A DNA stretch of 64,000 bases from Spartobacteria bacterium (GCA_947482345.1 CANKJN010000004.1:234-64233); one strand, 5' to 3'; shown: positions 7,026-10,339, counted from the first letter of the stretch. Program-made: numbers and translations. The notes: generated by a model from the letters alone, not told the origin.

Positions 7026-7312
7026 GATACGTGCATGGGTTGTTGTGAGAAACCATTGCAGAAGGAGCTATCCGAGCCCCGACGGCGAGGCAAGCGCCGC
7101 TTTGGAACAGTTTCGGCACAAAAAAAGCGGGCCACCTGATTGGCGTCGGAAAAACCATGAAACCGACGCCGGGTGGCCCGCTCCCAACTCTAAAACCTGT
7201 ATATTCGACCCCAATGCCCAGGTGGCGTTCAAAAAATTTTCCGCTTCTCTGTTATTTTGTCCGCTTCCTGCTACAAGTGAGCGCTTCCATCCTCCCCCGG
7301 ACCGCATCCTTT

Positions 7313-8314
7313 ATGACCAAAACCATCGGCATCCTCACTTCCGGCGGAGACTCTCCGGGAATGAATCCGGCCATCCGCGCCGTCGCGCGAACGGCCGCCC
7401 AGCACGACTGCCGTGTGATGGGGATCAGTAACGGTTACGACGGGATCTTTGACGGCCTCACCGAGGAACTCGGCACCCAAAGCCTCGCCTCCATCATCGA
7501 CCGTGGAGGAACCATTCTTCAATCGAGCCGCTGCAAACGGATGTACACCCCGGAGGGAGTGGATCACGCCCGCAGGCGTCTTCAGGAACTCGGCATCCAC
7601 GGTCTGGTTGTGATCGGCGGCGACGGATCCCTGACCGGTGCCCGTGAACTCTCCAAACGAGGGATGCCAGTCGTGGGGATCCCGGCCAGCATCGACAACG
7701 ATCTGGCGGGAACCGATATGGCGATCGGTGTCGACACCGCCACCAATACCATCATGCAGCAGGTCGACAGGATACGCGACACGGCCCGCTCCCACCGCCG
7801 CTGCTTCCTCATCGAGGTCATGGGGCGCAATTCCGGCTACCTCGCCCTCACCACCGCCATCAGCGGCGGTGCCTCCGTGGCGGTGATTCCCGAATTCCGT
7901 TACAACATGGATCGCATCGTGTCCCTCCTCCACAAACGATACCAGGAGGCGCGCGGCAACTCGATCGTCGTGCTCGCCGAGGGTGTCTGCGGCGCGGAGA
8001 CTTTCATGGCGCGGATGACGGAGGCGGTGCCGGGAGGCGAGTTCGAGCAGGAAATCCGAATCACCGTACTGGGGCATGTGCAGCGCGGCGGCATCCCGAC
8101 CCACTTCGACCGCATGCTTGGCGCCCGCTTCGGGGAGCTTGCCGTGACGGGCCTCCTTGCCTCGGAAACAGGCTGCATGACCGCCCTTGCCAAGGGGCGC
8201 GCCACCCTGATCGACCTCAACATGGTGATCGGGAAGAAAAAGCATCCCGCTCCCGAACTGATCCGTCTCGCCCGCAACCTCAAGGTGGAATTCGGCGATC
8301 CGGTCGAACTGTAG
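7313..8314 (+). CDS. pfkA: ATP-dependent 6-phosphofructokinase
   Basis: ILTSGGDSPGMN, GGDGSLTGA, PASIDND, IEVMGRNSG, LGHVQRGG motifs. Confidence 0.95.
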   Translation: MTKTIGILTSGGDSPGMNPAIRAVARTAAQHDCRVMGISNGYDGIFDGLTEELGTQSLASIIDRGGTILQSSRCKRMYTPEGVDHARRRLQELGIHGLVVIGGDGSLTGARELSKRGMPVVGIPASIDNDLAGTDMAIGVDTATNTIMQQVDRIRDTARSHRRCFLIEVMGRNSGYLALTTAISGGASVAVIPEFRYNMDRIVSLLHKRYQEARGNSIVVLAEGVCGAETFMARMTEAVPGGEFEQEIRITVLGHVQRGGIPTHFDRMLGARFGELAVTGLLASETGCMTALAKGRATLIDLNMVIGKKKHPAPELIRLARNLKVEFGDPVEL

Positions 8315-8408
8315 GGAAGCGCCCCCCTAAACTCACGCCCGCCGCGTGAGCGACGCCCGTCTCATTTTCGCGGATGGACGGGTTGGGATCGTGAGGTAGC
8401 ATCCGCTC

Positions 8409-9263
8409 ATGGATTCCCTCCTCACCCTCCCCATCGGCGACTTCCGCGCCGTCGAGTTGACCCTTCGGCTGACCGTGGCGTTGGTGGCCATGACGGCTCT
8501 CCTGCTCCTCCTCTCCATCAGCTGTACGACGGGCCGCCTCCGTCTGCCGCTTATCCTCGCCTCGGTCGCCCTCCTCGGTGCGGCCTGGTTTGAATCGGGT
8601 GTCTGGCTTGGCTGGAAGCAGGGTTTCGAGTTGGCCGGCACCTCCTACTGCGTCACCGGTCAGCTCCTTTCCGGCGAGGACCGCATCCTGGCCTGGTCCC
8701 TCGGTGTCCCCGCTCTTCTCTTCTGCTTCGGACTGCTTCGGATCCCCCGGGGAGAGGGGCATTCCTCTGCATGGACGCGTTTCTGTGCGGCAGTGCTGCT
8801 GCTCGCTCTCCTTGCACCGTTCTCGAGTCTGATGGCGCTCGCCTTGCTGGGCTGGGTACTCTGGTTCCTCTGCATCAAGGCTCCTTCCGTCGCCAAGGGT
8901 TCCTCCGTTTCCCTGCGGCGGGTATGCCTCATTGCATCGGGCAGCATCGCGCTCCCGTTCCTTATCAACCTTCTGGGCGGCTTGCATCTCCTGCCGCTCG
9001 GAAAGTCTGCGGAGGGGGTTCTTGTCCGTGGTGAAATCATCCGCTCCCTTTGCGACATCCTCTCCTTGGTCGTGCCAGCCGTGATCCTGCTGATCGGGGT
9101 CCTCAGGCTGGGCGCGGATGTTCCTGGTAAATCCCCCGAACCCTCATCCGCACCCCTAACCACATCCCACATCACACCCCCAACCACACCACTCAAGGAA
9201 AAGAAATCCAAGCCGCGCGATCCCTCATCATCGGATCTCCAATCCGGCCTGTTCGGAAGCTAG
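8409..9263 (+). CDS. microbial rhodopsin-like 7TM protein (xanthorhodopsin/Gloeobacter-type) lacking the retinal-binding Lys
   Basis: About seven hydrophobic segments. Helix C RILAWSLGVPALL aligns to RYVDWLLTVPLLL and helix G SLCDILSLVV aligns to TIADVLAKPV. Manual alignment from memory of Gloeobacter rhodopsin. Confidence 0.72.
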   Translation: MDSLLTLPIGDFRAVELTLRLTVALVAMTALLLLLSISCTTGRLRLPLILASVALLGAAWFESGVWLGWKQGFELAGTSYCVTGQLLSGEDRILAWSLGVPALLFCFGLLRIPRGEGHSSAWTRFCAAVLLLALLAPFSSLMALALLGWVLWFLCIKAPSVAKGSSVSLRRVCLIASGSIALPFLINLLGGLHLLPLGKSAEGVLVRGEIIRSLCDILSLVVPAVILLIGVLRLGADVPGKSPEPSSAPLTTSHITPPTTPLKEKKSKPRDPSSSDLQSGLFGS

Positions 9264-10339
9264 AGCGTCGGGTAATCCGTATACCCCTTTGCCCCGGGAG
9301 AATAGAAGGTCGATTCGTCCGCTGCATTGAGTGGCGCCTTCCGCCTGAAGCGCTCGGGTAGGTCGGGATTCGCGATGAAAGACACGCCGAATGCGATCGC
9401 ATCGGCCCACCCCTCGGCGATGGCCGCATTGCCCGACTCGAGGGTGAATCCTCCGGCGGAGACGATGTTCCCGCTCCAAGCAGAGCGGAGCTCCTTCGGG
9501 CCGACTCCCTCCACCGCGCCGTGGGCGACGTCCTGAGAGGTCACCTGCGTGATGTGGGCGTAGGCGAGACCGAAGCGGTTGAGCTCGCGGAGCACATGGC
9601 TGAAGGTCTGGAGCGGATTGTCATCGTGCATGTCGTTGAAGATGCCGGCGGGTGAGAAACGGATCCCTACCCGGTCAGCACCCCAGACTCCGACCACGGC
9701 CTCGGTCACCTCGAGGGTCAGGCGCGCCCGGTTGGCGACCGAGCTTCCATAGAGGTCTCCGCGTTGGTTGGTTCCCGTGCGCAGGAACTGATCAAGCAGG
9801 TAGCCGTTGGCGTTGTGGATTTCCACGCCGTCGAATCCAGCCTCCTTGGCGAGCTTCGCGCCGTGGACATACTCGGCGATGATGCCGGGAATCTCGGCGG
9901 TCTCGAGGGCGCGGGGAGTTACATATTCCTCCATCGCTGTCCCGGTGAAGACCTGACCCTTCGGCTTGATGGCCGAGGGAGCGACGGGGAGTGCCCCTTC
10001 CTTCTGATAAGCGGGATGGGAGATGCGGCCGACATGCCAGAGTTGCAGGTAGATGTGCCCACCCTTCGAGTGGACCGCGTCGGTCACCTTCCTCCATCCC
10101 GCGACCTGATCCGCCGTGTGGATGCCTGGAGTGTTCGGATATCCGTAGCCGGAGCGAGAAACGGAGGTCGCCTCCGAAATGATCAGGCCGGCCGAGGCCC
10201 GCTGGGCATAATACTCGGCGTTGAGTTCATTGGGCACATGACCCTCGGCAGCCCGGCAACGCGTGAGCGGCGCCATGAAGATGCGATTTGGCAGGGCGAG
10301 CGGGCCGAGCTGGAGGGGAGAGAAGAGATCGGGCGTCAT
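9260..10339 (-). CDS. Old Yellow Enzyme family alkene reductase (NemA-like)
   Basis: NRIFMAPLTRCRA, QLWHVGRISH, GFDGVEIHNANGYLLDQFL, FIANPDLPERF, KGYTDYP. Confidence 0.93.
   Translation of the reverse strand: MTPDLFSPLQLGPLALPNRIFMAPLTRCRAAEGHVPNELNAEYYAQRASAGLIISEATSVSRSGYGYPNTPGIHTADQVAGWRKVTDAVHSKGGHIYLQLWHVGRISHPAYQKEGALPVAPSAIKPKGQVFTGTAMEEYVTPRALETAEIPGIIAEYVHGAKLAKEAGFDGVEIHNANGYLLDQFLRTGTNQRGDLYGSSVANRARLTLEVTEAVVGVWGADRVGIRFSPAGIFNDMHDDNPLQTFSHVLRELNRFGLAYAHITQVTSQDVAHGAVEGVGPKELRSAWSGNIVSAGGFTLESGNAAIAEGWADAIAFGVSFIANPDLPERFRRKAPLNAADESTFYSPGAKGYTDYPTL

Follow-up and report, generated by a model that had tools for sequence, protein, structure and literature searches.

A lysine-less opsin of freshwater Chthoniobacterales, probably exapted from a xanthorhodopsin-type proton pump

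A 64,000 bp stretch of DNA from a Spartobacteria bacterium (GCA_947482345.1, CANKJN010000004.1:234-64233), hereafter the window, contains a gene at positions 8409–9263 whose product has the opsin fold but neither the retinal-binding lysine nor the residues of a proton pump. Very probably, this protein is an exapted, retinal-free and partner-independent derivative of a xanthorhodopsin (XR)-type proton pump. The ancestral type survives in a sister genus, as an intact ELAG-loop, xanthorhodopsin-like gene beside the orthologous pfkA. Because the chromophore site and the pump residues have been lost, light-driven pumping or photoreception would be impossible. Because the gene is kept under selection in species with neither a rhodopsin nor blh, retinal and a pump partner would be unneeded. 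As judged from sequence, the present role must be light-independent. The gene and its parts are as follows.

8409..9263, + strand: Lys-less, pump-residue-less opsin-fold gene ('family III'), 284 codons plus stop; from the open reading frame (ORF), profile, AlphaFold2 and hhalign
8613..8660, + strand: B–C loop motif, residues W69–G84, W-x3-F-E-L-A-G-T-S-Y-C-V-T-G; the most conserved stretch
8682..8726, + strand: helix C; R92 (R82 of bacteriorhodopsin, BR) and W96 (BR W86) retained, Asp replaced by A95, Thr by G99, Glu by C106
9027..9068, + strand: outer half of helix G; R207, E209 and R212 family-specific, D216 kept, L220 at the Schiff-base Lys site
9129..9260, + strand: cytoplasmic C-terminal tail, residues 241–284, of low confidence (disordered); from model and alignment

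The ORF translates without interruption into 284 residues. The codons of interest, read in the window, are CGC for R92 (8682), GCC for A95 (8691), GGT for G99 (8703), TGC for C106 (8724), GAC for D216 (9054) and TTG for L220 (9066). The G+C fraction at third codon positions (GC3) is 0.75, close to the 0.78–0.82 of the adjoining genes, and thus the gene appears native. The AlphaFold2 model (pLDDT 82.8, pTM 0.77) has seven helices, which span residues 9–39, 42–76, 89–111, 119–135, 140–157, 166–191 and 201–237.

No Pfam or NCBIfam model, PF01036 included, matches the protein even at E ≤ 10. For comparison, the Lys-bearing relative P0146 scores 74.6 bits against PF01036, and the proteorhodopsin (PR) of the window's own genome scores 153 bits. 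Nevertheless, the protein is homologous over its whole length to the pumps of the xanthorhodopsin clade. As a single sequence, it finds xanthorhodopsin 3DDL in the PDB with phmmer at 2e-4, colinear over residues 3–148. A profile built from 41 homologs has 30 PDB matches, microbial rhodopsins without exception, led by Kin4B8 (1e-11) and xanthorhodopsin (3e-11), then psXR, thermophilic rhodopsin and Gloeobacter rhodopsin (GR). The chains matched by this family profile include XR, GR, TR, NaR and ClR; no PR or FAR chain is matched at E ≤ 1 in a PDB library that includes 9R21 and 9R23. When the model is compared with the PDB by Foldseek, the best match is again xanthorhodopsin, with TM scores of 0.68/0.75 over 246 columns; the leaders XR, GR, psXR and Kin4B8 score 0.61–0.68 when normalized to the query and 0.69–0.76 when normalized to the target.

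The alignment of the family with its Lys-bearing relatives by hhalign has a probability of 99.0% (E=2.7e-18, 235 columns). It pairs R92 with R, A95 with D, W96 with W, G99 with T, C106 with E, D216 with D, and L220 with K (K233 in the relatives). Relative to the latter, the D–E region carries an 11+4-residue deletion, and the helix-F 'WAFYPL' of the relatives stands opposite 'LHLLPL'. A preliminary description of the gene, made from the window's sequence alone, had read it as a xanthorhodopsin-related, Lys-less opsin without pump residues and with a shortened D–E region. That reading is upheld by the PDB profile search, Foldseek, hhalign and the codons. Its calls of A95/G99/C106, D216 and L220 (TTG, 9066) are all correct, its intact 284-residue ORF with host-like codon usage agrees with the translation and GC3, and its seven or so hydrophobic segments correspond to the seven helices of the model. 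Of the checks it proposed, superposition on known structures and a proper alignment at the helix-G position came out in its favor, xanthorhodopsin being the best structural match with GR among the leaders, and L220 facing the Schiff-base Lys. The PF01036 match that it also asked for does not exist, a test too strict given the profile and structural evidence.

A search of 5.8 billion proteins yielded 110 homologs, with identities to the query down to 42%. They are unnamed or 'hypothetical', and none has a Pfam domain. When 1.84 billion cluster representatives were scanned exhaustively with HMMER, only about 16–20 clusters proved to belong to the family; they are followed by a gap that extends to E~1e-4, where true rhodopsins start. 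Residue statistics were taken from 119 near-full-length members, and profiles from the 41-sequence alignment. No member has K at the Schiff-base Lys site (220); the residue there is L in 100 members, F in 17, M in one and I in one. Nor does any member have D at position 95, which is A in 116 and S in 3. The helix-B His, the partner of the counter-ion in the XR clade, is F61 in the family; the donor Glu position is now C, S or A; and the helix-F pocket motif WxxYP is now (W/F/L)xxLP. W96 and D216 are largely kept. Five residues, W69, E74, G77, G84 and E209, are invariant in 119/119 members, and the 41-sequence alignment has 13 invariant and 26 nearly invariant columns.

The conserved regions are the N-terminus, helices A–C, the B–C loop and helix G. 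Helices D, E and F have an entropy of about 2.5 bits and not one position conserved at ≥90%. In the conserved helices and loops, mean entropy is 1.10 bits in the periplasmic half and 1.88 bits in the cytoplasmic half, and conservation of ≥90% is reached by 26 of 98 and 8 of 78 positions, respectively. Relative to the Lys-bearing relatives, the outer half has gained the charged residues E16 and R20 (helix A), E62 (helix B), and R207, E209 and R212 (helix G), and it has retained E74, R92 and D216. The B–C loop motif is common to these relatives (WNEAFELAGNSYAASGH), with a looser likeness in xanthorhodopsin.

A C-terminal tail is present in 24 of the 119 members, including P0007, P0012, P0018, P0045, P0051, P0092, P0112, P0115 and L022. 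It has two conserved modules, the basic patch [KR]E[KR]K.K.R and, at the very C-terminus, [DE]-x-Q-[ST]-G-L-F-G-[SN]; in the window, these are the patch KEKKSKPR and the terminal D-x-Q-S/T-G-L-F-G-S/N motif. Members with the tail occur in scattered branches of the family tree, so that it was probably present in the ancestor and has been lost repeatedly. Its terminal Q-x-x-L-F resembles the β-clamp-binding pentapeptide, QL[SD]LF.

Among 301 genomes of the same GTDB order, strong full-length matches to the gene are confined to the window's own freshwater Chthoniobacterales genus. Every one of its 23 sampled genomes has a match, which is a full-length gene without internal stops in 21 and only fragmentary in 2. 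The full-length orthologs remain uninterrupted across synonymous divergences (dS) above 1.5 (21/21). The ratio of nonsynonymous to synonymous divergence (dN/dS), calculated according to Nei and Gojobori (NG86) for pairs with dS<1, is 0.15–0.39; thus, the gene is under purifying selection. The intact orthologs and this ratio, which is not near 1, support the suggestion of the preliminary description that the gene was repurposed rather than left to decay. Public metagenome-assembled genomes (MAGs) labeled Proteobacteria and Oligoflexia also carry the gene (L051, RFPR01000071.1; L056, CAIOKW010000027.1). These copies are most likely mis-binned or mislabeled contigs rather than products of horizontal transfer.

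The same assembly (2.36 Mb, 93% complete) has a single PF01036 gene, on contig C21. It encodes a green proteorhodopsin, which matches GPR structures at 8e-83 and has 'RYIDWLITVPLLMVEF' as helix C and 'NLADVLNK' in helix G. The gene is part of a complete cassette.

Contig C21:23.9–30.5 kb (L001): green PR cassette, with PR, crtE, crtI, crtB, crtY and blh

The opsin had been described as stand-alone, with the advice to search the genome for a Lys-containing opsin and for blh and crt genes. That search finds this one cassette. The term therefore holds for the window, where there is no partner opsin, the only PF01036 gene and blh being on C21, but not for the genome.

PR is present in 14 of the 23 genomes of the genus; blh accompanies it in all 14 and is found in one further genome (78% complete), i.e., 15/23. 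Nine of the 23 have no PF01036 match, and eight of these lack blh as well. The eight genomes without PR and blh are 85–96% complete, and seven of them keep the full-length Lys-less gene. Nor is selection relaxed in PR-less species: dN/dS of the Lys-less gene is 0.22–0.38 in PR-less pairs vs. 0.14–0.30 in PR-bearing pairs. Since the gene is kept in genomes without PR and blh and its dN/dS is not relaxed, both an obligate role as pump subunit or regulator and a need for retinal are argued against. The PR cassette is itself polymorphic across the genus (14–15 of 23 species), which implies its repeated loss or gain.

The origin of the protein is indicated by weak matches at the end of the exhaustive search (P0126, P0127, P0129 and P0130), through which another set of Verrucomicrobiota proteins was found; these share the B–C loop signature 'W(N)EAFELAG(N/S)SYA(A/V)SGH'. 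Group I (P0126, P0131–P0150) is PF01036-positive. It looks like a working DTE pump, in that nearly every member shown possesses the His, R, D, W, T, E, WxxYP, D and K. In Group II, the Lys site is L (P0127, P0149), Q (P0129, P0151, P0152), P (P0130) or I (the G256 gene), and the Asp and Glu are partly lost; most Group II proteins are still recognized by Pfam. Group I is the rhodopsin of a sister genus in the same GTDB family, P0146 being encoded on a contig of G013. In three genomes (G013, G092 and G221), the Group I gene stands tail-to-tail with a pfkA that is 72% identical to that of the window. The Group II gene for P0129 also adjoins pfkA.

In the sister genus, the ELAG-type Lys+DTE gene is the only rhodopsin and is found in 6 of 13 genomes (G013, G092, G132, G221, G235 and G256; loci L030–L033), with G256 carrying the Lys-to-Ile variant. 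No blh (PF15461) match was found in any of the 13. These bacteria may scavenge retinal or produce it with a different enzyme; otherwise, their opsins, too, are retinal-free. In a maximum-likelihood tree, family III is monophyletic (100/100) and is attached among Group II by a stem that is 2.7 substitutions per site long. The tree is unrooted, and long branches meet in it (P0154 with the genome's own PR). Long-branch attraction may have contributed to the ladder-like attachment to Lys-less intermediates, the exact point of which is not relied on.

The proposed history is as follows. An XR-type pump gene would have been situated beside pfkA in the common ancestor of the two genera. In the window's genus, the chromophore site would then have been lost, and inversion of either the opsin gene or pfkA would have produced the co-directional pair. 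Rapid evolution into a new protein, since conserved, would have followed. In this genus, the Schiff-base Lys has given way to L or F, the counter-ion Asp to A, the His that partners it to F61, the Thr to G and the donor Glu to C, S or A, and divergence has proceeded so far that Pfam recognition has vanished.

What the protein may do now is suggested by the pattern of conservation. Helices A–C form the oligomer interface in pentameric rhodopsins, whereas helices D–F make up the antenna (carotenoid) site of xanthorhodopsins and also hold the ring end of retinal. With helices A–C and G conserved and D–F drifting, the rhodopsin scaffold would be retained, and probably the oligomeric assembly as well. 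The working surface would be the remodeled periplasmic half, i.e., the N-terminal strand, the B–C hairpin, the F–G loop and a charge cluster, buried or outer, of E16, R20, E62, E74, E90/D91, R92, R207, E209, R212 and D216. Most plausibly, this charge-rich outer half would be a binding site for an ion, a ligand or a protein; alternatively, it may take the place of the chromophore structurally. In some species, the tailed forms with their QSGLFG motif could recruit a soluble cytoplasmic partner. Opsins are also reported to have scramblase activity that does not depend on light (PMC10730872). An extension of this proposal, which we think unlikely, is that the protein, co-transcribed with pfkA, is a light-independent seven-transmembrane device. 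Its periplasmic half, with the new buried charges, would bind or sense an ion or ligand of the periplasm or else the proton-motive force, and the protein would relay this state to central carbon metabolism. Relay could occur by docking or regulating phosphofructokinase (PFK) or another partner through the cytoplasmic face or the QSGLFG tail. If so, it would be a bacterial, retinal-free use of the opsin fold in the manner of a G-protein-coupled receptor ('GPCR-like'), with a pump-to-sensor transition documented stepwise in one family.

The immediate neighbors of the gene bear on several of these ideas. They are as follows.

7313..8314, + strand: pfkA (PF00365), directly upstream; probable start at 7313 (MTKTIG), ORF open from 7157
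8315..8408, + strand: pfkA–opsin spacer, 94 bp (12–118 bp in orthologs)
9260..10339, − strand: OYE-type flavin reductase, Oxidored_FMN (PF00724), convergent, the two genes overlapping by 4 bp at their stops

Thus, the gene does lie between pfkA and an OYE reductase, as had been noted. Each of the 17 orthologous loci examined has pfkA directly upstream in the same orientation, 12–118 bp from the opsin gene. A consensus scan found no promoter-like or terminator-like site in the 94-bp spacer, the promoter side of such a scan being uninformative for this phylum. Since pfkA is co-directional in 17/17 loci, the gaps are short and no terminator-like site is seen, the opsin gene is likely co-transcribed with pfkA. 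A Dus-HK-RR-pfkA block (HK, histidine kinase; RR, response regulator) is syntenic upstream throughout the loci. The downstream neighbor varies and is OYE, NUDIX or YbaB-DnaX. No flotillin, transducer or PR gene is adjacent in these loci, and no flotillin gene lies within ±8 kb in L002, L004 or L005, or anywhere in the window.

Several observations weigh against the proposal of an exapted, partner-independent protein, or against parts of it. The dN/dS of the opsin gene is 3–10 times above that of pfkA, which is 0.00–0.09 in the same genome pairs; that is, constraint is moderate. The opsin gene is the fastest-evolving gene of the neighborhood, with 47–59% identity against 78–88% for pfkA. It was found in DNA metagenomes from lakes, rivers and other freshwater only, and in no RNA run. 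As the MAGs are 4–15% incomplete, a PR cassette could have been missed in a few of the eight genomes termed 'PR-less'; moreover, the linkage of PR and blh means that the absence of both counts only once for each genome. Conservation is the only ground for the function suggested for the periplasmic charge cluster. Finally, the adjacency to pfkA is older than the loss of Lys, as the convergent pair of the sister genus indicates, and the upstream block is syntenic; the adjacency may thus reflect inheritance rather than functional coupling.

The last point also bears on the idea that the opsin anchors or regulates phosphofructokinase, so that a periplasmic or membrane cue would be transmitted to glycolytic flux. 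An analogy is offered by heliorhodopsin, which binds glutamine synthetase. Coupling of this kind would account for the co-directional pfkA in 17/17 loci, at distances as short as 12 bp and without an intervening terminator, while downstream neighbors vary, and for the presence of pfkA beside the sister-genus opsins and the Lys-less P0129. However, an adjacency that precedes the change of function, within a syntenic block, is sufficiently explained by common descent. Further, the sister-genus pair is convergent and not co-transcribed, and only 24 of 119 members have a cytoplasmic tail able to reach a soluble enzyme. We consider such coupling doubtful. Less probable still is that the protein acts as Rh-noK proteins may do, i.e., that its essential role is as a subunit, regulatory or structural, in hetero-oligomers formed with the green PR of the genome. 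The PR cassette in this genome and 13 congeners would fit such a role, as would the conservation of helices A–C, the pentamer interface, and a hetero-oligomer model has been proposed for Rh-noK and FARs (PMC10308929; 10.1101/2025.04.29.651185). It is disfavored, along with the mixed-oligomer subunit of the preliminary description as an essential role, by the eight of 23 species without PR and blh, seven of them with an intact gene whose dN/dS is not relaxed. In addition, the opsin and PR genes are never in tandem but on separate contigs, and the PR is canonical and belongs to another clade (green PR, 8e-83) than the XR-like ancestor.

Could the protein hold retinal or a carotenoid without a Schiff base, as a store, chaperone or antenna? 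Xanthorhodopsin ancestry and the largely retained W96 (BR W86) and D216 are in keeping with this, but seven blh-less species keep the gene, and the helix-F pocket is replaced (Y to L, with W variable). Helices D–F, with the antenna site, are the most variable part of the protein, so that the carotenoid- or ligand-binding option raised earlier has no support. Moreover, new charges, E209, R207, R212 and E62, have arisen on helices B and G, the first three just outside D216. A non-covalent chromophore binder is therefore very improbable. A slowly decaying relic, that is, a dead pump gene that is functionless but so far undisrupted, would explain the rapid evolution relative to pfkA and the lost Pfam recognition. 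It is hardly credible in view of 21 full-length orthologs uninterrupted across dS>1.5, the dN/dS of 0.15–0.39, 13 invariant and 26 nearly invariant columns among 41 sequences, and five residues invariant in 119. The dN/dS and the intact orthologs likewise led us to reject the gene as a pseudogene.

The closest known systems to the exapted opsin proposed here are the XR-clade pumps (Salinibacter XR, 3DDL; Kin4B8, 7YTB/8I2Z; Gloeobacter rhodopsin, 6NWD) and especially the Lys+DTE ELAG opsins of the sister genus (P0126, P0131–P0150). With these, the family shares the seven-transmembrane type-1 fold, a colinear N-terminus, helix B, the R and W of helix C, the helix-G Asp and the B–C hairpin W..A[FY].L..G.Y..[TS]G; with the ELAG opsins, it shares the chromosomal place beside pfkA as well. 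Unlike them, the family has no Schiff-base Lys, His-Asp counter-ion complex, Thr or donor Glu. Its helix-F WxxYP is degraded, its D–E region is shortened, helices A, B and G bear new charges, and there is no PF01036 match.

Lys-less opsins are known from haloarchaea and as Rh-noK and FARs, the bacterial cases having been explained so far mainly by a pump partner in the same genome. Rh-noK proteins are Lys-less XR-related proteins of marine betaproteobacteria, encoded in tandem with PR (Yamauchi et al. 2019, via PMC10308929 and 10.1101/2025.04.29.651185). Rh-noK is reported to pump again once Lys alone is restored (PMC10308929; 10.1101/2025.04.29.651185). It follows that its pocket and pump residues are intact. 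The present family is likewise XR-related and Lys-less, and many of its host genomes also carry PR. In contrast to Rh-noK, the family lacks the counter-ion, His, Thr, donor and pocket residues, has no PR in tandem, and persists in PR-less species. Given the loss of the counter-ion, His, donor and helix-F pocket, the sequence predicts that restoring Lys alone would fail to restore pumping.

FARs belong to the PR clade, are always adjacent to flotillin and always have a PR in the genome (Haro-Moreno et al. 2023, PMC10308929; PsFAR, 9R21/9R23); freshwater FARs also lack Lys, having Q, T, L or R instead (PMC10308929). The family resembles them as a retinal-free opsin-fold paralog in aquatic bacteria with small genomes. 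It differs in having no flotillin neighbor, in matching no PR or FAR chain at E ≤ 1, and in the absence of PR from a third of its species. Membership in the FARs was rejected on the grounds that flotillin is not a neighbor, the family lies outside the PR clade, and there are PR-less hosts. Haloarchaeal opsin-related proteins are described as Lys-less with a conserved type-1 fold (Becker et al. 2016, PMC4915679, via PMC10308929), features that the family shares. Those proteins are archaeal, derived from sensory rhodopsin or bacteriorhodopsin and often paired with a transducer, whereas the family is bacterial and XR-derived and has no transducer nearby. Thus, the family misses a defining feature of each known Lys-less kind and is far more diverged, with no PF01036 match.

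The family removes the pump-partner explanation, as a third of the species that keep the gene have neither a rhodopsin nor blh. It also escapes rhodopsin screens based on hidden Markov models or on the lysine, and opsin-derived proteins may therefore be under-counted. A survey of Verrucomicrobiota rhodopsins, for example, retained Lys-bearing sequences only (PMC10284914). No earlier description of a Lys-less opsin from Verrucomicrobiota or Chthoniobacterales was found in the open literature, a search that did not cover subscription journals. Together with its relatives, the family offers a natural series that runs from an intact pump through Lys-less but recognizable forms to a remodeled protein, and so provides unusually good material for studying exaptation of a cofactor-dependent membrane machine. 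The two ends of the series, pump and remodeled protein, stand beside orthologous pfkA genes, each in one of the sister genera, and pfkA also adjoins one or more of the Lys-less intermediates.

Some minor observations concern the gene order at these loci. The 52-residue N-terminal extension of the longest pfkA ORF (7157–7312) is probably untranslated, since orthologs and the Pfam match begin at M53 (MTKTIG, 7313). YbaB-DnaX is just downstream of the opsin gene in some loci and follows OYE in the window; the OYE reductase is inserted between opsin and YbaB only in a subclade (the window, L013–L015 and L022). A LemA gene (PF04011) repeatedly precedes the Group I and II ELAG-type genes, in divergent orientation (L007, L009, L010 and L012), a neighbor absent from the window's genus. 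Beyond LemA, in L009 and L012, lies a gene with a TPM_phosphatase domain (PF04536).

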